Origin: a virus
Taxonomy: Duplodnaviria > Heunggongvirae > Uroviricota > Caudoviricetes
Length of the DNA stretch: 64,000 nucleotides
IMG/VR virus record: IMGVR_UViG_2974578326_000001
Location: 26,711-90,710 of that record
Strand: one strand, 5' to 3'
Part shown: positions 4,098 through 55,585 of the stretch, one piece after another
How positions within the stretch are numbered: the first letter of the stretch is position 1
How the letters are laid out: the number at the start of each line of letters is the position of its first letter
The notes under the pieces: model-generated
The model's input: only the letters and a program-made list of their open reading frames with translations
Told to the model about the DNA's origin: nothing
Database searches by the model: none
Translations under genes and position numbers: made by a program

Positions 4098-4502
4098 TTA
4101 AAGATAAGTTGAGTCAATATCAATATTTGTTTTTGTAGAATCTTCTTTTATGGTCACTAAGATTACGGGGATCTCATTCCTGACTAGGTAATTATACATA
4201 TGAAGACTTCCTTTAGAAACACCATCCCATAGTATTACACCCATATCAGCGTATTTACCCATCTCTGCATTCCTAATATAACCAGCACTTTTACCATATT
4301 GATCCCAGTCTGGTTTAAATACAGTTAATTTGATTTCATTCTCTTCTGCTAAAAGTTCTCCAAATCTATCTGCACCCCTAGCATTTCCTGATACAATTTC
4401 TGTTGTATTTTTAAGTATATTGTGATCTTTGTTTACAAGATTAAACATTTTACTAAGTTGTGAGAATTTTAAATCTCTGCTTCCTGCAATGATAACTTTC
4501 AT
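4098..4502 (-). CDS. SLOG-superfamily (DUF2493/YpsA-like) nucleotide-binding protein
   Basis: IIAGSRD ... SGNARGAD Rossmann-like motifs as in DprA/LOG/DUF2493. Confidence 0.4.
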   Translation of the reverse strand: MKVIIAGSRDLKFSQLSKMFNLVNKDHNILKNTTEIVSGNARGADRFGELLAEENEIKLTVFKPDWDQYGKSAGYIRNAEMGKYADMGVILWDGVSKGSLHMYNYLVRNEIPVILVTIKEDSTKTNIDIDSTYL

Positions 4503-5125
4503 TATTTATTTCTCCATTCAAACCAACCAATAAAACTATTGACTAAGAATACAACACGCATAACTGCTATAGCTAATACTTCAGGAACTAGTGATGCAGC
4601 TGTAAACCACATAATAACTTCTATAGTATTGCATGGTATCCAGTAGTACCACTGTTTCTTTGTATCAGACATTAATAACAGAGTTGATGTTATTATTAAT
4701 GCACCACTAAGAACATCATGAACAGGCATTGTAGATCCAGTATAAAGCATTATATTTGTATATATTATAGCTAAAGTCGAGAATATTACTAAATGATATT
4801 TGTTTATGTTATTAGTTATTGTTTTCCCAATTAGATCCTTACCCTTCCATTGAAAATAAGCTATAATTTGCAATGGTGCGAGTATAAAAGTATTCACTAT
4901 CATATTTATTATGAAACCAGCTTCATAAGACATATACCCTAGTAGAACACACAGTATAAAACCTAATAGGTTACAAGCTGGAATCCTAAAAGCAACACCA
5001 ATAACAAATAGTACTCCAACTAATGAGGTTATTGTTGTTAATAGACTCGCACCTGAGACAACGCATGCCCCTAATATAAGAGAAGGGGCAACAAAGCCCC
5101 AAACTGATTTTAAATGTTTTACCAT
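4502..5125 (-). CDS. PnuC-like nicotinamide riboside transporter (membrane protein)
   Basis: 7 predicted TM segments; conserved Trp/Asn motifs (AYFQWKG, KQWYYWIPCNTIEV, IGWFEW) resembling PnuC; start moved to MVKHLK to avoid overlap. Confidence 0.45.
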   Translation of the reverse strand: MVKHLKSVWGFVAPSLILGACVVSGASLLTTITSLVGVLFVIGVAFRIPACNLLGFILCVLLGYMSYEAGFIINMIVNTFILAPLQIIAYFQWKGKDLIGKTITNNINKYHLVIFSTLAIIYTNIMLYTGSTMPVHDVLSGALIITSTLLLMSDTKKQWYYWIPCNTIEVIMWFTAASLVPEVLAIAVMRVVFLVNSFIGWFEWRNK

Positions 5126-5138
5126 ATAACTCCTTGGA

Positions 5139-5699
5139 TTAGAAAGGTTCTGCCGTACCAATAGCTTCACGTAAGTCTTCTTGTTCAGTGAAACCTTTTC
5201 CATTAGTTAATTGTAAAACAGTTCCATATACATACTGATTAATACCTAATGAGCGCCTATCTTCTGACTCTGTGATGCCTTTAACACGTCGAATGTCACC
5301 GTAGTGTGCGATCACTTCTTTATCTAGTATTTTATCTGTCAATTTCTTAATAATTCTTAACTTATGGTCACTATCAATGTCATCATCTTTTAAAACTACA
5401 TCAATTAATAATGACAAATCTTTCATACCTTTAATCTGCCCAAGCTCAACATGTGTACCAAGAGCTTCTGGTAATGGTTCAATAAGAATTGTATCAGCCC
5501 ACATAATTGCATCAGTGTCATGTTTAACAATACGTTCCGCTAAACCCTCCTGTACCGCATTCTTTTTATCATTAATCTCTTTATTATCCATAGGGTTGTA
5601 TAATTCATGTCCAAGTTGGTGAATCATTTCTTTTTCTTGATTTCTCTGTAATTGTGACCCAACTGTTAAACAATGTCCTGCAATGTAAACTTTTTTCAT
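5139..5699 (-). CDS. nucleoside 2-deoxyribosyltransferase-like (SLOG/Rossmann) protein
   Basis: N-terminal KVYIAGH glycine-rich strand and downstream acidic residues as in NDT/Rcl family. Confidence 0.4.
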   Translation of the reverse strand: MKKVYIAGHCLTVGSQLQRNQEKEMIHQLGHELYNPMDNKEINDKKNAVQEGLAERIVKHDTDAIMWADTILIEPLPEALGTHVELGQIKGMKDLSLLIDVVLKDDDIDSDHKLRIIKKLTDKILDKEVIAHYGDIRRVKGITESEDRRSLGINQYVYGTVLQLTNGKGFTEQEDLREAIGTAEPF

Positions 5700-12909: not shown

Positions 12910-13422
12910 TTATTTCCTATAAATATTAACATCATAAGAGTCTTCAAAAATCGTTTTAATATTCTTTTCAACTTCTTTCCAATTACCACCAGCTAAACCG
13001 CAACCGATTAATGGAAAACCAATCTTATAACCAATATTAGCTAAACCTCTGTCATCCAGTTCGTTTGCCATTCTAACAAGTCCTACAGTCAAGTATGATA
13101 ACTGGGTTCCATAATCTTCATGCCAATATCTATAATCTAGTTGACCGTAAATATTGAATACAAACTTATTCTTTTCTTTTTCAAAGAAAGAACAATGTCC
13201 AAGTCGATCTTTACCTTTTTCTTTTGAATATTCAGAATCAGATTTAAAAGCCTCTGGAATATCCCTCTTTAGTTGTTTAGCAAAACCAGAACCCATCACA
13301 TTATAGCAATTCGCTTGGTGTGCAATACAATCTACCTCACCGTCTATAAAGGCTTTTATTAGATCACCTTTTATATATTTAATCATACTACACCACCAAA
13401 TGATCTTCCTATGTTTCCGCAC
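12910..13422 (-). CDS. macro domain (ADP-ribose binding/processing) protein
   Basis: IKGDLIKA..VDCIAHQANCYNVMGSGFAKQ and GFPLIGCGLAGG match macro-domain signature. Confidence 0.7.
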   Translation of the reverse strand: MRKHRKIIWWCSMIKYIKGDLIKAFIDGEVDCIAHQANCYNVMGSGFAKQLKRDIPEAFKSDSEYSKEKGKDRLGHCSFFEKEKNKFVFNIYGQLDYRYWHEDYGTQLSYLTVGLVRMANELDDRGLANIGYKIGFPLIGCGLAGGNWKEVEKNIKTIFEDSYDVNIYRK

Positions 13423-26190: not shown

Positions 26191-26748
26191 TCATCCTCTA
26201 TTATTTATATTTTCATAAATTTCACTACTTTTAATAAATCCAAGTAGTTTATTTAGAGTCTTTTGATTTGGTATGCTTACTCTCAAGTCTGCGTTTCCAT
26301 TTACACCTGACACTGAAACATCTTCCACTCCTTTGAAAGAAGGAAACCTTTCTTCATGTATAGCTTTTACTCTCTCTATGAAGTTTGAATCTATAAAGCA
26401 CTCATGCCAGTTACCATAATCCATAACAGATCCATCTTTAAAGATAACACTCACTTTTCTATATGGCATATTTTTCATAGTAATGTTTTTAGAATAATCA
26501 TCTGTTAGATCTATTAAAACACCTTTGTCATCTTTTTCTATGATAAACCTATTACACATTTTAGATCTGATTATTAATTTTAATAAATGTTCATCTGTTA
26601 CTTTTAATTTAAGAAACCTATAGGCGTATGTTAGGCTTTCTAATACACCTGTACAAATATCCTTTATAAATTCTTCTTCAACTTTTTCTAAATTCTCATC
26701 ACTAAAAATATGTGTAATTGAGCTCTTATTATACATCAACATGTACAT
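26191..26748 (-). CDS. hypothetical protein, paralog family member C
   Basis: similar termini to the two downstream ORFs. Confidence 0.4.
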   Translation of the reverse strand: MYMLMYNKSSITHIFSDENLEKVEEEFIKDICTGVLESLTYAYRFLKLKVTDEHLLKLIIRSKMCNRFIIEKDDKGVLIDLTDDYSKNITMKNMPYRKVSVIFKDGSVMDYGNWHECFIDSNFIERVKAIHEERFPSFKGVEDVSVSGVNGNADLRVSIPNQKTLNKLLGFIKSSEIYENINNRG

Positions 26749-44904: not shown

Positions 44905-46032
44905 TTATCCTTTTACATTAACAACAGGTTTAATATAGTGTAAAACTTCTACAAGATCTTCTTGAAGTCTCATAACATCAAAAATATCTTTATAGGCAAA
45001 AGGTGATTCATCTATTGTTGATTCACCAACAGTAGCACCTGGGATGTCTTTCATGGACTCTTTAAAGGATTCTAGTGTTACCTCTTTCTTAGCCTTAGAA
45101 CGACTCATAACACGACCAGCACCATGAGAGGAACTGTTCATGCTTTCTGGATTACCTTTACCACGAACAATGAAACAACCATCACGCATGTTTCCAGGAA
45201 TAACACCCATCATTCCATTATCAGCATGTGTTGCACCTTTTCGGTGAACCCATAAATTGTTTTTGAACTCAGCATGGTTATGATTTCTATTAATAATAGA
45301 ATTACCATCCATAGTGAATCCATTAACTGAGCATACACGCTGTGCAATGTATTCACGGTTCGCTAGTGCAAACTGAAGACCATATTCTAAATCTAGAATA
45401 TAATCTCTGCCCTCTTCAGAAGTCTCTGAAAGAGGACAAGCACTTTCAGCTTTTCCCTCATCACCAGAAGCCAATTTCATATACAATGATGCTATACCAT
45501 GTCCAATGGATCGACTACCAGAGTGGATAGTTAACCAAACTTGATCTTCTTCATCATATCCAATTTCAATGAAATGGTTTCCTCCACCAAGAGTTCCAAT
45601 ACAATTTGGAGCATGGCCAAGGATATCATTAATTCTGCTGGAATGTTTTGGTAGTACTTTTTGAGATAACCACTTACTTGCTTCTTGAAGATTTTCATTT
45701 TTAGAGAAACCCACAGGAACCGCTGAAAATATTTTATCTCTGATAGTTTCAGCATTATTGATTAAATCTCCTTTAGTTACACCAAGGAGTTTCACGGAGA
45801 ACATACCACATCCGATATCATATCCAACAAATGATGGGTATATTGTTCCAGCTGTTGAGACAACTGCACCAATTGGAAGTACATATCCAGAGTGGGCATC
45901 AGGCATTAATGCACCTTGAACTACATCAGGTAGTGACATTACATTTACAAATTGATCTATTGCACCTGATTCTAAATACTCTGCATAGATTTTATAAGGT
46001 TTATTTAATTCTTCTAGTTTTTTAAGTTTCAT
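44905..46032 (-). CDS. rtcB: RtcB-family RNA 3'-phosphate ligase
   Basis: metal/GTP-site motifs PDAHSGYVLPIG, NHNHAEF, SSHGAGR. Confidence 0.85.
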   Translation of the reverse strand: MKLKKLEELNKPYKIYAEYLESGAIDQFVNVMSLPDVVQGALMPDAHSGYVLPIGAVVSTAGTIYPSFVGYDIGCGMFSVKLLGVTKGDLINNAETIRDKIFSAVPVGFSKNENLQEASKWLSQKVLPKHSSRINDILGHAPNCIGTLGGGNHFIEIGYDEEDQVWLTIHSGSRSIGHGIASLYMKLASGDEGKAESACPLSETSEEGRDYILDLEYGLQFALANREYIAQRVCSVNGFTMDGNSIINRNHNHAEFKNNLWVHRKGATHADNGMMGVIPGNMRDGCFIVRGKGNPESMNSSSHGAGRVMSRSKAKKEVTLESFKESMKDIPGATVGESTIDESPFAYKDIFDVMRLQEDLVEVLHYIKPVVNVKG

Positions 46033-47480: not shown

Positions 47481-47678
47481 TCACATACCTTTTTTCTTAT
47501 TATTTATATAATTAAACATACCCAAATCAGCACCATTTTTAATTGCAGCAGATATTAGTGTATCTGGGGAAATGTAATCTAAAACCTTGTCGATCTTACC
47601 TTCAATAATAAGACAATGTGCAATATCTGATTCATTATGTTCAAATATCAACTTCTGTAATAACTCAACGTTTCTCAT
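47481..47678 (-). CDS. hypothetical protein
   Basis: 65-aa ORF. Confidence 0.3.
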   Translation of the reverse strand: MRNVELLQKLIFEHNESDIAHCLIIEGKIDKVLDYISPDTLISAAIKNGADLGMFNYINNKKKGM

Positions 47679-47895
47679 TTAGATTTCCTTTTTCTTCACA
47701 CTCATCAGATAATATTGTACCACCAGAAATTACAATTAAAACAAATGCTAAGAAACCCCAAATAATACCACCTATTGGGTATACCAAATATAATTGCTCT
47801 CCTCGAAAACCAATATCATACCTTAGTTTTACAAAGAATGTGCAAATAGTAATTGTTAATACCATAGATAAGATAATCCATGTTCCTTTTTTCAT
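47665..47895 (-). CDS. small membrane protein
   Basis: 76 aa, 2 TM helices. Confidence 0.35.
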   Translation of the reverse strand: MKKGTWIILSMVLTITICTFFVKLRYDIGFRGEQLYLVYPIGGIIWGFLAFVLIVISGGTILSDECEEKGNLNEKR

Positions 47896-47909
47896 ATTTA
47901 TACCTTTAT

Positions 47910-47981
47910 CGCTCCGTGCAGGAATCGAACCTGCAACTACCTCTTAGGAGGAGGTTATTATATCCATTTAACTAACAGAGC
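47910..47981 (-). tRNA. tRNA-Arg (anticodon CCU)
   Basis: cloverleaf on minus strand, anticodon loop CTCCTAA, T-loop GGTTCGATTCC, no encoded CCA. Confidence 0.7.
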
Positions 47982-47986
47982 ATTGA

Positions 47987-48193
47987 TTATTTTTTAATAA
48001 ACGGTCGATCAACCGAAACAGTCCATCCAATCGTCACAGTAGTCATGAATATATAAAATAGAATTGCTTCATTGTCTCCAATTTGAGTATATCTACCCAA
48101 GTTGTATGATTGTATTGCTGTAATCAATACAGCTAAGAAAACCTTAAACATATTAATTACCTCAAAGTGGGCAACATTTAATCTGCTACCCAC
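47987..48193 (-). CDS. small membrane protein
   Basis: 68 aa, 2 TM helices. Confidence 0.35.
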   Translation of the reverse strand: MGSRLNVAHFEVINMFKVFLAVLITAIQSYNLGRYTQIGDNEAILFYIFMTTVTIGWTVSVDRPFIKK

Positions 48194-48204
48194 TGTATTA
48201 TTTA

Positions 48205-48861
48205 TTAATAATTACGGAGAACCGTTCGGGTTAAATCAGTTAGTGTTTTATCAGTTGTGTTTTCACCAATAACAGTAACTTCCCAACCAGAACCAGTTCG
48301 ATCAAGGCGGGCAAGAATAGCACATTCTTTTCCTGCGAACTTCTTATCATTTTCCATGTTAAATTCAGCAATCTTCATACCTTTGCCATCTTTAACAAGA
48401 CCATCGTAGATGTTAATTCCAATATATGGGATCTCATCAAACTTCTGATGGGAATAGGAGTTCAGAACTGCATACATGTGCTTAACATTGCTTGGGACTT
48501 TCAGACCCTTAATGGTAATGATTTCATTATCCATTCCATCATCTTCATCATCACCTGAACGATCATCACCAGTGTGTGTTACAGAGCCACACGAGGAACG
48601 CAACTTGCCAAAGTAAACAGTGTCAACTTTCTTTTTATCACCATCAGCCAAGATTAATGATAAATCCAAATCAACATCTTCTAAGATAGCTTTCTCTGCA
48701 CCAACAAAAGATAAAGCTTTACCTAATAAACCAGAAGCTTTGGAATTACCAGCTCGATTGATTTTACCCCAGTTAACACCAAATGAGATATCAATAACTG
48801 GTGTACCTTTCTCATTTAAAAGTCGAGTTGTTTCATTTTTATTTAATACTAAAGTTGACAT
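48205..48861 (-). CDS. TerD-domain protein
   Basis: VDLDLSLILAD..VYFGKL..GSVTHTGDDRSGDDEDD..EIITI match TerD calcium-binding signature. Confidence 0.7.
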   Translation of the reverse strand: MSTLVLNKNETTRLLNEKGTPVIDISFGVNWGKINRAGNSKASGLLGKALSFVGAEKAILEDVDLDLSLILADGDKKKVDTVYFGKLRSSCGSVTHTGDDRSGDDEDDGMDNEIITIKGLKVPSNVKHMYAVLNSYSHQKFDEIPYIGINIYDGLVKDGKGMKIAEFNMENDKKFAGKECAILARLDRTGSGWEVTVIGENTTDKTLTDLTRTVLRNY

Positions 48862-48870
48862 TATTTATCC

Positions 48871-50520
48871 TTAAATATAGAGCTTTAAATTATTTTTAAT
48901 ACGAGATTCAATCTCAGACCAATCAGTTGTCGTTACTTCACCATCCTTAAAAATGGTTAACAGTGAAGTGTTCTCTTCTTCTTCAACTGTTGCCTTGTCC
49001 TTGAATTTCAGGACTCCATCTTCATAGTAATGGTAAATGAGACCAGTTAATGATTTCTTACCAGGATCAGTAATTGGATCTTTCATTACTTCACGTGCTT
49101 CGCCATTAACAACACCATATGTTGCTTTGATTGCAAAACCAAAGGTATCACGGGTGATGTACTGATACGTGAATGCACCTACACCAAATACTACAGCAGA
49201 TGATGCATACCCTTTATCATGTAAACGCTCCATGATTTCATTAGCACGCTGTTTAGTGATTGAATCGCCGTAAAGAACGCCAACATGGGGATCGAGAACC
49301 TTGAAGCCTTTTGAGTTTATAGTGTGACCAAAGATTTCATCAAGTAATTGAACTACTCCTTTCATCTCAGGAGCCAGTTTATCAATTTGAGACCATTTAA
49401 AATCAAAACCAACATCTTTATCTTCTAAATAAGATGCGATATATTTCTTGCCATTAATAGTTTCAATAATGAAATCAGTAATCTCTCGATTATAACGTTG
49501 ACACAAGATATTATGAACATCATCAACGGTGTGATAATCAAGTTTTGTAATGTTACAGCGAATAACTGGTAAGCCACACAGGATATCAGCTGGATCACCT
49601 GAATCAGGTCGTGTTACAACCTTACCATCTCTGGAAAGGATTACATCTTTCAGCTCACGTAAGATTTTATCAACGTGGTTCCATGTATCCCAAGTATCAT
49701 TTACTATTGACACAATACCTGTTGGCGTTGTTTCTGTGATAAGACGACGAACAGTATCAAGTTCACCATCTTTCGTCCCCATGCACATTACAGAGTGTTC
49801 TGTTGCATCTACAGAACCACCACGTTCTGTTTTGTAAACGTGCTCAAATATCTCACGACCAAAAACAGAGTCAGTACCTTGGAACACAGATAAGTGAGCC
49901 ATACCAGCAATTGCTGATGCATAGATTCCATAATCACCACGGCTACTGAAATCATGACCTTGCCAATCAACATGTGAATTATCATCACAATTTCGAATTG
50001 CCCACTGTTCACAGAGTAGACGGAAATGAAATGCTGTTGTCGCAGAAGTAATGATAGGCCACATCTCTGCACTAATTAAGGTTTCAAGGTAGTTCACAAG
50101 CCAGAAAAAATCTGGATGGGTATTTTTAATTGTTAACATTGGGGTTCCAACATCAACAACTTCACCCTCTGGAACAACTTTAATTTCGAGTGGTAAGTAA
50201 CCAAGTTTGTGTAAAGCTCGGATACGGCTAATATCGTAATCTTTTCCGAGGTAACGATCAACAGAACGCTTCATCTCATCACAAATGCTTTCATCTTTTT
50301 GGAAGAATTCAGAATCAAATTCATCTTTAATCCAATTAGTAATGAAAGCTTGAAAACCAAAACTAAGAATCTTTGGATCATCAGTTACTTGTCTATCGGT
50401 AAATCGTTTTGCATTACGTGGTACAAAGTTACCATATATAAGACTTGTACCTTCTGGGTATTGATTTGCATGAGATAGTTTATAACCATCAATTGCAAAA
50501 ATAGGAGATGTTCTTTTCAT
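48871..50520 (-). CDS. NAMPT-family nicotinamide phosphoribosyltransferase (NadV/Namat-like)
   Basis: 549 aa; PIFAIDGYKLSHANQYP and GHDFSSRG match NAMPT N-terminal and catalytic motifs. Confidence 0.85.
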   Translation of the reverse strand: MKRTSPIFAIDGYKLSHANQYPEGTSLIYGNFVPRNAKRFTDRQVTDDPKILSFGFQAFITNWIKDEFDSEFFQKDESICDEMKRSVDRYLGKDYDISRIRALHKLGYLPLEIKVVPEGEVVDVGTPMLTIKNTHPDFFWLVNYLETLISAEMWPIITSATTAFHFRLLCEQWAIRNCDDNSHVDWQGHDFSSRGDYGIYASAIAGMAHLSVFQGTDSVFGREIFEHVYKTERGGSVDATEHSVMCMGTKDGELDTVRRLITETTPTGIVSIVNDTWDTWNHVDKILRELKDVILSRDGKVVTRPDSGDPADILCGLPVIRCNITKLDYHTVDDVHNILCQRYNREITDFIIETINGKKYIASYLEDKDVGFDFKWSQIDKLAPEMKGVVQLLDEIFGHTINSKGFKVLDPHVGVLYGDSITKQRANEIMERLHDKGYASSAVVFGVGAFTYQYITRDTFGFAIKATYGVVNGEAREVMKDPITDPGKKSLTGLIYHYYEDGVLKFKDKATVEEEENTSLLTIFKDGEVTTTDWSEIESRIKNNLKLYI

Positions 50521-50783
50521 TCTGAATCCAACTCAATTTCTAATGTTTTAATTCTACCAATAGCAAGGACAAGGGTGTTATTTTTAACAGATATAAGTGA
50601 TGCATCTTCTAATCTTAGATATGCATCATGCCCTTCATAGTTATTTTGAACCTTTATATAACTTCCATCAACTCTGCCATTAATTTTATAAATCTTACCA
50701 TCGTTAGGTTCTGTCATCCCTGACTGTATATATGGTAATTTTTTATCGACAACAACCTTTTTCAGAAATTTAGGGTTTTTCAA
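50517..50783 (-). CDS. hypothetical protein
   Basis: 88-aa ORF between NAMPT and PRPS-like genes. Confidence 0.35.
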   Translation of the reverse strand: MKNPKFLKKVVVDKKLPYIQSGMTEPNDGKIYKINGRVDGSYIKVQNNYEGHDAYLRLEDASLISVKNNTLVLAIGRIKTLEIELDSE

Positions 50784-50792
50784 TTGTAACCT

Positions 50793-51593
50793 CTACTTTG
50801 TCCAGTCATAAACAGCATAGATATGATCAATAATATTATAGAACACTTCTTTACCTTTTGAGAAGATACCATTCGTAACGAACAGAGAGATTGATTCAGG
50901 ATTACCCTTAGCTCTTAATGCTTTGGCTACTTCAACAAATGTACGACCACCATCACAAATATCATCAACAATAATCAGATTAGCGTCACAGTAGTCAATG
51001 GAAGTATTGACTTCTACACCAGTGATTTCTCCTGTTGATGTATCACGAATTTTACTTGCGTGTATAACAGGTTTGTTGAATAATTTTGATAACTCATGAA
51101 TCTTTTTATCAGCCCCTGCATCTGGTGATACAAATATTGTTTTTCCTTTAAACATCTCACCTATTGGTAAAGCGTGTTTGTGTTGCAGGAACACTTGAGA
51201 TTGTTTAATTACACTGGAATTATTTATCAGTGCTGGTGCAACATCAGAGTGTGGATCAATAAGAATAACTTCATCTGCATTCAAAGAGTTAACTAAGTTC
51301 GCAAACACTTTTAAAGAGAAGCACTCTGTTTTAGATGTTACACGATCTTGTCTTGCGAATGGTAGATATTCAAAGATGATTTTTAAATTACCATCTTTAC
51401 GTTTCATACGACTTACTACATCATGAATAAGAAGCATATCGATTACTTCATCAGAAGAGCGTAGAGAACAGATCATCTCAACATCAATAACAACTACTGG
51501 AGGTTTTGACAAAAGCTTGGCGTGTCTTTCACCTCCGTTAAATGAGAACAAATCAAATTCTTGAGGAATACCATTCATTGTTACATGAATCAT
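50793..51593 (-). CDS. ribose-phosphate pyrophosphokinase-like (PRPS/Adps-like) enzyme
   Basis: 266 aa; PFARQDR and PRPP-binding loop IVDDICDGGRT. Confidence 0.75.
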   Translation of the reverse strand: MIHVTMNGIPQEFDLFSFNGGERHAKLLSKPPVVVIDVEMICSLRSSDEVIDMLLIHDVVSRMKRKDGNLKIIFEYLPFARQDRVTSKTECFSLKVFANLVNSLNADEVILIDPHSDVAPALINNSSVIKQSQVFLQHKHALPIGEMFKGKTIFVSPDAGADKKIHELSKLFNKPVIHASKIRDTSTGEITGVEVNTSIDYCDANLIIVDDICDGGRTFVEVAKALRAKGNPESISLFVTNGIFSKGKEVFYNIIDHIYAVYDWTK

Positions 51594-51907
51594 TCTAAAT
51601 CCTCCACATATTTTTTATACCACTTATCAACCTTTTTACTAATTGAATCTTCCAGTAAAGAGATGAAATTTTCTTTAGTAATGAACCCTTTATTGCGATA
51701 ATAAAGAAAAGCACAATCAACAGAAGAAATAATAATGTCAGCAGTTTCATTAACTACATTCTCCATATGTTCATTATAAAGAATAGCAGACTGAAGTTCA
51801 CCAGACTCTTCTCCTACTTTTAATGCTACATCTTTTGGATCTCTTGCTAGACCAGCAACAAACGATGTATCTAATATTTTATTTAGAGATTCCATACTTA
51901 TCTTCAT
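51590..51907 (-). CDS. MazG-like nucleoside triphosphate pyrophosphohydrolase
   Basis: EESGELQSAIL and ETADIIISSV (EExxE / ExxD helices). Confidence 0.5.
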   Translation of the reverse strand: MKISMESLNKILDTSFVAGLARDPKDVALKVGEESGELQSAILYNEHMENVVNETADIIISSVDCAFLYYRNKGFITKENFISLLEDSISKKVDKWYKKYVEDLE

Positions 51908-52139
51908 CCCCTTTATGGAAACTATTATTCACAGAGTATGTTTTATCAACGTCTGATTGAATCAATGTTTCGACTACAGCATTATCTAATTTCTTAGCCT
52001 CAGAGTTTTTATCTGATTTATTTGCCATATAGATAAATAGAAAAGTAATAACAAAGAATAAGATAACACCACCCATCATCTGACCACTACTACCACTTCC
52101 AGTGATTCTTGGATCACCTAAATCATCGTCATCAATCAT
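51879..52139 (-). CDS. small membrane protein
   Basis: 86 aa; one TM helix. Confidence 0.35.
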   Translation of the reverse strand: MIDDDDLGDPRITGSGSSGQMMGGVILFFVITFLFIYMANKSDKNSEAKKLDNAVVETLIQSDVDKTYSVNNSFHKGDEDKYGISK

Positions 52140-52211
52140 TAACTTTCATACCAGTGTATTATTAAGATGATAAGGTATATAACTAAGAAAAAGTGATACA
52201 TCATATACCTC

Positions 52212-52234
52212 CTTATATTATGTGCAATAATTTA
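52212..52234 (-). promoter_or_regulatory. copy 3 of conserved promoter/operator-like motif
   Basis: cttatattatgtgcaataattta followed by AAGGAGG SD. Confidence 0.45.
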
Positions 52235-52729
52235 TCGACCAATTTTTGTACAATGAGGCATATTTTCTAGTCCTTCCTTTACCTCTGGTAATAAATCAAT
52301 TGCTAGTTTAAGGAAACTTATTGGAACCCTGTCACAAGAAGGCCTTTCTCTATTGATTTTAACAAGCTCTTCAAAAGGTTTCTCAAATAGTTTGTAACAA
52401 AATTGCAGGTCGAGATAATCAGCTAGCATTTTCCAATCAAGAACTGTACCAATATTAAAATTAGTGTTGCATATTATAATTTCTTTTATTTGGCTTCTTT
52501 TTGAAAGCTCGATAACTTGTGCCTTCATCATGTTTTTCATCAAAGACAGTGTTTCTTTATTATTTAGTCTTGAAAAGAATTCTTTTTTATCCATATCTCC
52601 AAATAAGGTTGTTCTCAAGTTATCTAAACTAACAACTGCAATCCTTCCTAAATCTCTTTTGCAACGTCTATTAGTCCAAGTGGTTTTACCCGCACCAGCA
52701 GAACCAATTGTTAATATTAACTTTTTCAT
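52232..52729 (-). CDS. polynucleotide 5'-kinase (T4 Pnk kinase domain only)
   Basis: MKKLILTIGSAGAGKTTW almost identical to T4 Pnkp N-terminus; collinear through the kinase domain; no HAD phosphatase domain. Confidence 0.7.
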   Translation of the reverse strand: MKKLILTIGSAGAGKTTWTNRRCKRDLGRIAVVSLDNLRTTLFGDMDKKEFFSRLNNKETLSLMKNMMKAQVIELSKRSQIKEIIICNTNFNIGTVLDWKMLADYLDLQFCYKLFEKPFEELVKINRERPSCDRVPISFLKLAIDLLPEVKEGLENMPHCTKIGR

Positions 52730-52740
52730 TTAATACCTTT

Positions 52741-53010
52741 CTATTTTACAAGAGTTAGGATTAAGATTAAAGTAACTATTATTACAATAGTTATTGATAA
52801 TACATTGTTTTTATTCACTCTTTTTTGTTTTAGTTTTTCGATAAGTAAATACCGATTCCACCATTTTTGAATAAGATTATTCAATTCATCATCTGAGTAT
52901 CCGCTGAATGAGTATGTTGTGTAAGCCATTAACAAATTATTATCAACTAAAACTGATCCCCTTTTATCATGAAACAATATCCTACCATCACCAAGTTGAT
53001 TTACTTTCAT
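52741..53010 (-). CDS. hypothetical protein with C-terminal TM helix
   Basis: 89-aa ORF. Confidence 0.35.
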   Translation of the reverse strand: MKVNQLGDGRILFHDKRGSVLVDNNLLMAYTTYSFSGYSDDELNNLIQKWWNRYLLIEKLKQKRVNKNNVLSITIVIIVTLILILTLVK

Positions 53011-53012
53011 AG

Positions 53013-53339
53013 TTACCTCAACTGAGAATCCTTAGAGCCTCTTCTATTGTATCCAGAGAATGTCTTGACATCTTTTAATGATTGACACTCTATACAGAAC
53101 TTAACACCTTTTAAAGCCTTTCTACGAGCTTCTGGTATTGGTTCACCACACTCTAAGCAGAACATTTCACTTTCACCTTTTGGTAAGTTTGCCCTTGCCC
53201 TTAAAATGCCATCATCAATAGTGGCTTTAATAGTATCTTGGAAATTGTCTATATTTCCGAAGCCAACTGCCATATTACACCTCAAAATAGGAGGAACATA
53301 ATGTTCCCCCCTTAGATTAAAAATTAACAATTCTTCCAT
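53013..53339 (-). CDS. DksA/TraR-family C4 zinc-finger protein
   Basis: CLECGEPIPEARRKALKGVKFCIECQ. Confidence 0.55.
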   Translation of the reverse strand: MEELLIFNLRGEHYVPPILRCNMAVGFGNIDNFQDTIKATIDDGILRARANLPKGESEMFCLECGEPIPEARRKALKGVKFCIECQSLKDVKTFSGYNRRGSKDSQLR

Positions 53340-53539
53340 TCAGTAATACCTGATAGAATTTCAACCCCATCAAGTTTACGATCTTTGTGGTTTTTAAGCT
53401 CACGAGTGAACACTGGGTTTTTAACATCTGAACCCTCTACCACTTCTTCAGAGTAAACAGCCTTGGTGAAAGCGCCTTTATTTTTAACAATAACAACAGC
53501 ACCAACTTCAGGACGTTTTTCTGAGATATTTAAGAACAT
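53324..53539 (-). CDS. hypothetical protein
   Basis: 71-aa ORF. Confidence 0.35.
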   Translation of the reverse strand: MFLNISEKRPEVGAVVIVKNKGAFTKAVYSEEVVEGSDVKNPVFTRELKNHKDRKLDGVEILSGITEWKNC

Positions 53540-53618
53540 ATTAATTTCACCTTTAATTTAAATTAAGATTAGGAGTCGCTCAAGATCCCTCAAGCGACTT
53601 ATTAATGATTACAGAGGT

Positions 53619-54203
53619 TTATGCTTTACGTGATTCTAAAATGTCAGCCAGACCATTCTTAGAGCTTTCACCAACTGGTTCTGCTAGGTTAGTTACTTGC
53701 CACTCACCGTTAGTATCTTTTTCAATCATGACGAATTCAACAGCAGTAGAGAATGCCGCATTTTCATCAAGTTTAGCTTCAAATAAAACTTTATCGTCAT
53801 CGCCATATAAACGAGCAACTGGATTTGTTGAAGCTGCAAAAGGAACTGGCTCGTTAGCACTGTAAGAAGTCACAGCGATTAATAATTTATTAGCCTGTAC
53901 TTTTGTTAAATCAATTTCAATTGTTTCATCGTCACCATCAGCTGCACCATCACGAGCGTCACCGTAGTGAACAACTCCTGCGACAGGGTTCTCTGCATTC
54001 CCATGCTCGTTACCTGTACAGTTTCCATAATAAGCAATGTTTTCAGAATCAGGTTGTTTAATCTTGCCGTTATCATCTAACGCAACAAGAACAGCATCTA
54101 AATCTGCACTTTCATCCCAAGCCAAACCAAAGCGTAACTTTGTTAGAGATTTTGCTGCTTTTGACATATTGATGGTTTGGTTTTTGCTTAATACGATAGA
54201 CAT
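53619..54203 (-). CDS. TerD-domain protein (second copy)
   Basis: FGLAWDESADLDAVLVALDDNG..HYGDARDGAADGDDETIEIDL. Confidence 0.7.
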   Translation of the reverse strand: MSIVLSKNQTINMSKAAKSLTKLRFGLAWDESADLDAVLVALDDNGKIKQPDSENIAYYGNCTGNEHGNAENPVAGVVHYGDARDGAADGDDETIEIDLTKVQANKLLIAVTSYSANEPVPFAASTNPVARLYGDDDKVLFEAKLDENAAFSTAVEFVMIEKDTNGEWQVTNLAEPVGESSKNGLADILESRKA

Positions 54204-54308
54204 ATATTAACTTCCTTATGAATGTTAAGGCATTATTGCCAGATAGAATGTTTTTACTACACAATAAAATATGTTAGGGGTCTTAAACTAACAACCCCTA
54301 AAGGTATT

Positions 54309-54617
54309 TTATCGGATTTGCATGCTTGTAATATCAATGCTACCAATAACAATCAAACGTGGTTTAGCTTGTGGGTTATGCATTTTATTTGAACGATAAC
54401 CACTGCAACCTGTGCGAAGATTAGATACATATAACCCTAGGCTAGTTTTTCCAGTAACAGCGTATAAATCACCATTGTTACCTTTATAAACATCACCATT
54501 AACTAACATTGAAGCTGATTTGATTTGAGATTTCTTGAACTTCTTAATCTTGTATTTTAAAGTTGCCATCTGTCTATACCTTTTACAGTTGTTTGATTTT
54601 AATGGACGAGTAAACAT
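54309..54617 (-). CDS. hypothetical basic protein
   Basis: 102-aa ORF. Confidence 0.35.
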   Translation of the reverse strand: MFTRPLKSNNCKRYRQMATLKYKIKKFKKSQIKSASMLVNGDVYKGNNGDLYAVTGKTSLGLYVSNLRTGCSGYRSNKMHNPQAKPRLIVIGSIDITSMQIR

Positions 54618-54670: not shown

Positions 54671-55585
54671 TTATCTCTTGTTCAAAGATTTAATAACACC
54701 CATACCAAGTAGGGATAGGACTATAATCAAGGATAAAATTGGATTAATATGAAAACCAATAGTTGATGCAATTAATTTTAAACCTACAAAGATTAAAACA
54801 TAGCCAACATATGTTTCTAATTCCGATAACTTTTTAATCAAAATATCAAGAATAAAGAATAATGCTCTTAATCCAAGAATTGCCATGATAATTGCTGCAT
54901 AAACTAGTGTAGGTTCTTCTGTAATCGAGATGACAGCAGGTACACTATCGAACGAGAACATGATATCACTGAACTCGATAGCCACCATACAAAGGAAAAC
55001 AGGAGTAACATATTTAACACCATTAACGAAATGGAAGAAACGATCACCAGATGAAGTACCCGTGTAAACAGGGTAAAATTTCTTGACCATTTTGATGAAC
55101 CATTTATCGTCATAATTGACAGCTTCTTCTTCTTCATCTCCACCACCTTTTAAGATTGCGTAAGCAGACCATAGAACTATAAGTCCAAATACAACCTGAA
55201 CTAATGGGTGTAAATTAAACAGAGATGTTCCAAGGCTTACAAATATACCACGGAAGACTAAAGCACCAGCAATGCCCCATAACAATATCCGATGTTTTGT
55301 ATGAGTGTCTTTGATACCAAAGTACGAGAAGATTGCAATGAATACAACTAGGTTATCAATTGATAGAACCTTTTCCATTACATATCCACTATAATAGTGA
55401 ACCATACTAGTTGTGCCCATTAATAGCCACACAATAATACCAAAGGCAATACCAATACCTACCCAGAATACAGACCACATACAACTCTCACGGAAAGTCA
55501 TTTCTTTCTTGTTTCCATGACCAATAAAATCAAAGAAAATAGAAACTGAAATGACCATAGCCATTGCAATGTAAATACCAATCAT
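54671..55585 (-). CDS. TerC-family integral membrane protein
   Basis: multi-TM; duplicated signature VLSIDNLVVFIAIF and MFSFDSVPAVISI. Confidence 0.65.
   Translation of the reverse strand: MIGIYIAMAMVISVSIFFDFIGHGNKKEMTFRESCMWSVFWVGIGIAFGIIVWLLMGTTSMVHYYSGYVMEKVLSIDNLVVFIAIFSYFGIKDTHTKHRILLWGIAGALVFRGIFVSLGTSLFNLHPLVQVVFGLIVLWSAYAILKGGGDEEEEAVNYDDKWFIKMVKKFYPVYTGTSSGDRFFHFVNGVKYVTPVFLCMVAIEFSDIMFSFDSVPAVISITEEPTLVYAAIIMAILGLRALFFILDILIKKLSELETYVGYVLIFVGLKLIASTIGFHINPILSLIIVLSLLGMGVIKSLNKR

Follow-up and report, generated by a model that had tools for sequence, protein, structure and literature searches.

Two neighbouring genes in a stretch of viral DNA of 64,000 nucleotides (hereafter the window; positions 26,711 to 90,710 of IMG/VR record IMGVR_UViG_2974578326_000001), named here adps and namat, most probably work together as the nicotinamide adenine dinucleotide (NAD+) reconstitution pathway NARP1. 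We give this conclusion, drawn from sequence comparison and from analogy with characterised phages, a probability of about 0.88. The window is identical to bases 26711..90710 of Proteus phage Privateer (MT028297 / NC_048861, 90,710 bp), in the same orientation, and the 2.7-kb region carrying the pair is 100% identical to Privateer, a prolate podophage (Grimontviridae, Privateervirus) whose host is Proteus. Both genes are on the minus strand. The first, adps (50793..51593), encodes a 266-aa protein similar to ribose-phosphate pyrophosphokinase (Prs, or PRPS) and predicted to be an ADP-ribose pyrophosphate synthetase; the second, namat (48871..50520), encodes a 549-aa protein similar to nicotinamide phosphoribosyltransferase (Nampt) and predicted to be a nicotinamide ADP-ribose transferase. 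On their common strand adps lies 273 nt upstream of namat, which is two genes downstream of it, the only gene between them being an 88-aa open reading frame (ORF) with a TTG start (50517..50783, minus strand). This arrangement, which an earlier sequence-only reading of the window had described, agrees exactly with the ORF list. Neither ORF of the pair is due to chance, since both are long and have strong profile matches.

The NARP1 pathway was described by Osterman et al. 2024 (bioRxiv 10.1101/2024.02.11.579819), who reported that phage gene pairs annotated as Prs and Nampt are actually Adps and Namat: Adps converts ADP-ribose (ADPR) and ATP to ADP-ribose pyrophosphate (ADPR-PP), and Namat converts ADPR-PP and nicotinamide to NAD+. 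The same authors validated the pathway in phages Bas63, SPbetaL1 and FADO, counted 859 phages with NARP1, showed with Bas63 that it is independent of host pncC and nadR, and found that it defeats the defence systems SIR2-HerA, Thoeris type I, DSR1, DSR2 and SEFIR. Both Privateer proteins are in their tables: the 266-aa sequence is MT028297_00116 in the Adps list (Table S1, "Namat within 10 genes: Yes") and the 549-aa sequence is MT028297_00114 in the Namat list (Table S2, "Adps-associated"). The related phages 3H10_20 and vB_CsaP_009 are also included. The Privateer pair was thus already known, since it had been catalogued in that study and conforms to NARP1 on every feature that could be tested. 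The text of the Privateer genome paper (PMC7881722) does not discuss the pair and contains no mention of NAD, nicotinamide, PnuC or MazG. The sequence-only reading had hesitated between a classical NAD salvage pair and NARP1, with a leaning towards the latter; this leaning is upheld by the similarity of the two proteins to validated enzymes, by a clamp motif in Namat, by the failure of the Prs models, by the lack of a nicotinamide mononucleotide (NMN) adenylyltransferase (NMNAT) and by the listing in Osterman et al. 2024.

In the proposed mechanism, a host defence of the SIR2, TIR or SEFIR type would split NAD+ into ADP-ribose and nicotinamide. Adps would then move the pyrophosphate of ATP onto the free ribose C1'' of ADP-ribose, with ADPR-PP and AMP as products, and Namat would exchange the pyrophosphate of ADPR-PP for nicotinamide, giving NAD+ and pyrophosphate directly. 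Such a route would pass through no NMN intermediate and require no adenylyltransferase, and it would be active only once the defence has produced ADPR and nicotinamide. The NARP1 study itself is said to have appeared later in Nature. What is established directly here, at the level of sequence, is both proteins' membership of the Adps and Namat groups, the presence of the catalytic and clamp residues, the linkage of the genes and the lack of an NMNAT; the chemistry and the anti-defence phenotype are those expected from homologues in Bas63, SPbetaL1, FADO, Gary and DyoEdafos.

The 549-aa protein belongs, on sequence criteria, to the Namat group. It matches Pfam NAPRTase (E 9e-37) and NAMPT_N, and the NCBIfam model NF006629 with 499.5 bits (cutoff 405). 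A phmmer search of the PDB gave as best matches 9w5x and 9w5w (426 bits), whose residue numbering and sequence agree with the SPbetaL1 Namat of Lan et al. (PMC12774641); the NAMPT enzymes of human, rat and mouse scored about 216 bits. With blastp the closest validated enzyme was Bas63 Namat (E 3e-124 over 570 columns), followed by SPbetaL1 Namat (E 1e-94), compared to E 1e-34 and 29% identity for a NadV of the KVP40 type. The ten core residues listed in PMC12774641 for SPbetaL1 (D13, Y15, F189, R192, D215, A242, R306, D308, G360 and D361) are all identical in the alignment with Privateer Namat, where the conserved core comprises the D11/Y13 region, F191, R194, D217, H242 (the histidine of the ATEHS motif), R304, D306 and G418-D419.

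The most specific feature of Namat is the "selectivity clamp" described by Lan et al. (PMC12774641). It includes a conserved helix, GS-X-Phi-X-Phi-X-Phi-TRD, in which the aromatics in positions 3 and 7 stack against the ADPR-PP adenine, and double clamp mutants lose NAD+ synthesis and keep NMN synthesis. The corresponding helix of Privateer is GAFTYQYITRD (aa 448-458, 49147..49179), with both aromatics in place (F450 and Y454); it is GSFTYQYNTRD in SPbetaL1 and GSYTYQYMTRD in Bas63, whereas KVP40-type NadV has GGGLLQQLDRD and no aromatic clamp. A second clamp element is a loop that supplies a stacking residue; its putative counterpart in Privateer is PRNAKRFTDRQ... (aa 34-50, 50371..50421). 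According to the clamp-loop rule R, K or Y stands third, and where this is K or Y the stacking falls to the residue in fourth place. This loop is variable, and the Privateer version, PR-N-A-K-R-F, aligned to PR-S-D-K-W-F of Bas63, appears Bas63-like in the alignment: Lys third, Arg fourth, then Phe. Privateer and Bas63 Namat also have in common an insertion site after RPDSGDP. The Privateer insertion is 64 aa long (aa 322-385, 49366..49557), the Namats of Bas63, Pakpunavirus and Avunavirus carry 50-77 extra residues at this site, and SPbetaL1 Namat and NadV have none.

The 266-aa protein groups with the validated Adps enzymes and not with cellular Prs, as far as sequence can place it. Its matches to Pfam Pribosyltran and Pribosyltran_N are weak, and its match to phrog_619 is strong (252.6 bits). 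Blastp identities were 43% with Bas63 Adps (E 2e-50), 39% with the Adps of Proteus phage Mydo (E 7e-62) and 34% with SPbetaL1 Adps (E 2e-23), against 24% (E 1e-12) with E. coli Prs. In bit scores, Bas63 and Mydo Adps reached 155-183, SPbetaL1 Adps 84 and E. coli Prs 53; in a PDB search no solved Prs, whatever its class, exceeded 54 bits. All Prs models of NCBIfam stayed below their cutoffs, TIGR01251 at 99.6 against 113 and ten other Prs-named models far below. The protein had been estimated from sequence to be about 50 aa short while retaining the loop that binds phosphoribosyl pyrophosphate (PRPP). Both observations hold: E. coli Prs (315 aa) exceeds it by 49 aa and has N- and C-terminal segments that it lacks, and the loop motif DDICDGGRT is present as IIVDDICDGGRT (aa 210-218, 50940..50966). 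The catalytic Lys181 is in SKIRDTSTGEITG (51018..51056); within ASKIRDTSTGEITG it aligns with the flexible-loop lysine that is essential in SPbetaL1 (K162) and Gary (K192). The Adps sequences compared have four motifs in common, namely DPHSDV, PDAGA, K-x-R-D-x-x-TGEI and DDICDGGRT. All are found in Privateer (DPHSDV at 51240..51257, PDAGA at 51111..51125), and E. coli Prs has instead DLHAEQ, PDIGG, KRRPRAN and DDMIDTGGT. The comparison with characterised Adps/Namat on one side and NadV/Prs on the other, which had been named beforehand as the check to make, therefore places both proteins closer to Adps and Namat.

The linkage of the two genes points in the same direction. Osterman et al. 2024 found a Namat neighbour for 97% of the Adps-clade genes, and a single PHROG profile, phrog_12872 (547 positions), covers both Privateer proteins: Adps matches positions 9-223, in the N-terminal half, and Namat positions 236-523, in the C-terminal half. 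This span suggests that some phages have fused Adps-Namat proteins; such fusions would connect the two enzymes in the manner of a Rosetta stone. A locus of Shigella phage Ag3 (NC_013693.1, 84339..85004) is cited beside this hint of a fusion.

The main alternative is classical salvage, in which the 266-aa protein would be a short PRPP synthetase resembling class III, the 549-aa protein a NadV/Nampt, and the host NadR or NadD would complete NAD+, a logic similar to that of NARP2. The two proteins are indeed members of the Prs and Nampt superfamilies, RefSeq annotates them in this way, and among solved structures the one closest to the 266-aa protein is 4twb, a Prs of archaeal type. Yet the pair resembles validated Namat and Adps far more than NadV, NAMPT and Prs, every curated Prs model leaves the 266-aa protein below its cutoff, and the Namat clamp is present where a NadV would have GGGLLQ. 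Direct tests on relatives also speak against it: besides the functioning of the Bas63 pair without host pncC and nadR, SPbetaL1 Adps, assayed for Prs activity, gave no product (Osterman et al. 2024). We consider classical salvage improbable as the role of the Privateer pair.

The question of the adenylyltransferase bears on the same alternative. The sequence-only reading had seen no NMNAT in the window and had taken this as favouring NARP1, to be overturned if such a gene was found adjacent in the full genome and the enzymes proved to make NMN. The absence extends to the complete genome: tblastn with E. coli NadR (NMNAT and ribosylnicotinamide kinase) and NadD against the 90.7 kb gave nothing better than E 0.07 (KVP40 NatV was not among the queries), the HxGH motif occurs in no ORF of at least 80 aa in the whole Privateer genome, and an NMNAT is annotated nowhere in it. 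The 26.7 kb outside the window are of structural and lysis content: terminase, portal, capsid, tail, ejection proteins, spanins and an endonuclease. The absence is thus real, and the weight that had been placed on it is only partly justified: alone it says little, since the host NadR or NadD could act on NMN and finish classical salvage for a phage that has no NMNAT. Also against classical salvage, 94% of phages with a KVP40-type Nampt encode their own Nmnat, whereas Privateer has none. The real discriminators are the clamp motif and the clade placement; it is the clamp, with the Bas63 experiment on nadR and pncC, that carries the argument. In passing, a gene of Vibrio phage phi-Grn1 (KT919972.1) labelled "bifunctional NMN adenylyltransferase/nudix hydrolase" proved to be a KVP40-type NadV/Nampt of 497 aa. 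Its beginning, MLNLNQNIAIATDSYK, matches the KVP40 Nampt cloning primer, and its annotation looks like a database error.

Several observations weigh against the assignment to NARP1. The Privateer clamp helix has Ala at position 2 in place of Ser391, which in SPbetaL1 Namat hydrogen-bonds the NMN phosphate, and Ile at position 8 (Phi3); both residues are common to the four genus members compared. Privateer Adps has TNG where the other aligned Adps sequences and E. coli Prs have TH. The literature examined contains no Adps signature and the PDB search found no solved Adps structure, so that the differences between Adps and Prs motifs are descriptive only and the switch of substrate is read only from similarity and linkage. 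The placement in the Adps and Namat clades consists of pairwise and profile scores together with the published tree and analysis of Osterman et al. 2024. Finally, Namat enzymes still form NMN from PRPP in vitro (Osterman et al. 2024; PMC12774641), and because they keep this activity a secondary classical role is possible beside NARP1.

A last explanation, that the two are unrelated auxiliary genes, the Prs-like one raising PRPP for nucleotide synthesis and the Nampt-like one acting separately, would suit a genome rich in nucleotide metabolism (NrdA/B/D, dCTP deaminase, deoxynucleoside monophosphate kinase, thioredoxin, MazG-like protein) in which translational coupling joins the MazG-like gene to the Prs-like one, but it is very hard to reconcile with the profile common to both proteins, with the 97% association mentioned above and with an adps-namat linkage kept in Felixounavirus, Pakpunavirus, Avunavirus, SPbeta and Privateervirus, and we regard it as extremely unlikely.

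Assigned to NARP1, the Privateer pair can be set beside the characterised systems. Like those of Bas63 (genes 79-80), SPbetaL1 (genes 190-191) and FADO, it is a two-gene module with adps upstream of namat, it has the catalytic residues and the Namat clamp motif, and the phage has no NMNAT. Unlike them, it is known here from sequence alone, its enzymes are 34-46% identical to the validated ones, its clamp has Ala and not Ser at position 2, its two genes have a small ORF between them and a coupled MazG-like gene upstream, and it is carried by a prolate Grimontviridae podophage with a Proteus host. NARP2 of Vibrio phage KVP40 (NadV/Nampt and NatV/Nmnat) also employs an enzyme of the Nampt superfamily for the purpose of restoring NAD+, but it needs Nmnat and has no Adps. 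Cellular Prs and Nampt have the fold families and the core chemistry of the phage enzymes: Prs transfers a pyrophosphoryl group from ATP to a ribose C1, and Nampt puts nicotinamide in the place of pyrophosphate. Privateer Adps differs from Prs by its shorter length, its altered substrate-loop motifs and its failure in the curated Prs models, and the adenine clamp of Privateer Namat is missing from Nampt.

If the assignment is correct, Privateer would be able to undo the NAD+ depletion caused by Thoeris type I, DSR1/2, SIR2-HerA (Nezha), SEFIR and similar defences. The presence of NARP1 would then predict defence resistance in Privateer-like Proteus phages, which are therapy candidates for catheter-associated infections. 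The database labels "ribose-phosphate pyrophosphokinase" and "nicotinamide phosphoribosyl transferase" appear misleading, and Adps and Namat would correct them. The understanding of the pathway is unchanged; the small additions made here are an unlinked candidate for the phosphatase Adpp and a variable small-gene slot.

The pair is part of one tightly packed run of genes in the order MazG-like, adps, 88-aa ORF, namat, TerD. The MazG-like gene (51590..51907, minus strand, 105 aa) encodes an all-alpha nucleoside triphosphate pyrophosphohydrolase (phrog_1247, 62 bits). Its stop overlaps the start of adps in an ATGA, as does the stop of the 88-aa ORF with the start of namat, and 9 nt lie between adps and the 88-aa ORF, as between namat and the TerD gene downstream of it. 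The run is one of translationally coupled early genes. A promoter and terminator scan of 47500..54500 gave sites no more frequent than in shuffled sequence; the transcription unit is therefore undefined by the scan. The MazG-like gene adjoins adps, and is coupled to it, in all five genus members. The possibility that this gene and the family of the 88-aa ORF are general NARP1 accessories was rejected: neither adjoins NARP1 in Bas63, SPbetaL1, LCK69 or 18-1-2, the MazG-like gene being absent from these four loci, and our literature search found no paper tying MazG to NARP1.

The 88-aa ORF has no match in Pfam, NCBIfam or PHROG, and a word-based search of 5.8 billion proteins returned only the ORF itself. 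An exhaustive HMMER search of 1.84 billion representatives gave two small homologues at the genus level, together with spurious long repetitive proteins. A single-sequence AlphaFold2 model is all-beta with a low confidence (pLDDT 50.6). The content of the slot between adps and namat varies among the five phages of the genus. They are distributed as follows: in P59 no ORF is present and an apparent 63-nt remnant starting LKTPEFLKK is left; Privateer has one ORF; 3H10_20 apparently has one, from a full-length nucleotide match of 92.5% and one annotated hypothetical protein; J3S has an ORF of the Privateer type, an apparent decayed copy and a 99-aa paralogue; and vB_CsaP_009 has three paralogues of 87, 92 and 99 aa. 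On sequence grounds, the gap is a slot of gain and loss in Privateervirus with zero to three paralogous ORFs, and the 88-aa ORF is facultative, confined to the genus and not a core component of NARP1. Its identity with aRad1, a small inhibitor of the aRES defence, was considered and rejected; in the Privateer genome tblastn gave no aRad1 match better than E 0.66, and a motif scan gave none.

The sequence-only reading had also mentioned a PnuC-like transporter and a macro-domain protein elsewhere in the window, and both are real. The macro-domain protein, gp052 (12910..13386, minus strand, 158 aa; Pfam Macro, E 1e-7), also matches phrog_335, "phosphatase", with 169 bits. It has a possible meaning in relation to NARP1: cleavage of NAD+ by the aRES defence yields ADPR-1''-phosphate, a compound unusable by NARP1, and NARP1-AP operons add, within two genes of NARP1, a Poa1p-like macro phosphatase named Adpp (Osterman et al. 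2026, preprint 10.64898/2026.01.28.702374). Like the Adpp of the validated NARP1-AP of Vibrio phage Gary (Adps-Adpp-Namat; same reference), gp052 is a full-length Poa1p-like macro protein. It is 34% identical to Gary Adpp over its full length (E 2e-25), 37% identical to phiPsa397 (E 2e-29) and 40-41% identical to its best matches outside the genus, the macro proteins of Pakpunavirus NARP1 operons, and it retains as IAHQANC the catalytic residue His24 that was mutated in Adpp. Unlike the Gary gene, it is remote from adps and namat, from which over 80 genes and about 35 kb separate it. Privateer is not in the NARP1-AP Table S1 (10.64898/2026.01.28.702374) and is missing from this operon-based census because gp052 is not within two genes of the pair.

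From these similarities we infer that gp052 is a candidate Adpp that would extend NARP1 to NARP1-AP in trans, which is a reasonable hypothesis. The functional link with NARP1 is tentative, because the same macro family is found in T4-like phages that have no NARP1 and macro phosphatases could serve other purposes. A wider proposal is that NARP1-AP is dispersed in Privateer, gp052 converting ADPR-1''-phosphate to ADP-ribose that would feed adps and namat, and that the 88-aa type of cassette may in addition specify a new factor, accessory or anti-defence, connected with NAD+ reconstitution; we hold this as a tentative and rather doubtful proposal. If true, operon-based censuses, which assign NARP1-AP to 15% of NARP1 phages, would undercount the phages able to beat aRES.

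The PnuC-like gene (4502..5125, minus strand; Pfam NMN_transporter, E 1e-24), predicted to encode a nicotinamide riboside transporter, is flanked by a gene of the SLOG/YAcAr family (4098..4502) and by a gene resembling nucleoside 2-deoxyribosyltransferases (5139..5699), the latter just under the Pfam threshold. The trio (4098..5699, minus strand) might serve nicotinamide supply or the handling of NAD-derived nucleotides. The genome contains no NadR or ribosylnicotinamide kinase.

Other genes surrounding the NARP1 block were also noted. TerD-domain "stress response" proteins are encoded on both sides of it (48205..48861 and 53619..54203, minus strand) and a TerC-family membrane protein just upstream (about 54671..55585, minus strand), which makes a tellurite-resistance-like set in a lytic podophage. 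The neighbourhood also holds RNA-repair genes (44905..46032 and 52232..52729), encoding an RtcB ligase and a Pnk-like AAA_33 kinase, with tRNA genes nearby; in Pseudomonas phage LCK69 an RNA ligase and an AAA_33 kinase likewise precede the NARP1-AP locus. The longest ORF of RtcB (44905..46032, minus strand) has 375 aa with an ATG at 46032, and RefSeq places the start at 45906 (334 codons including the stop). As the Pfam RtcB match starts at residue 27 of the long form, the RefSeq start may be too far downstream.

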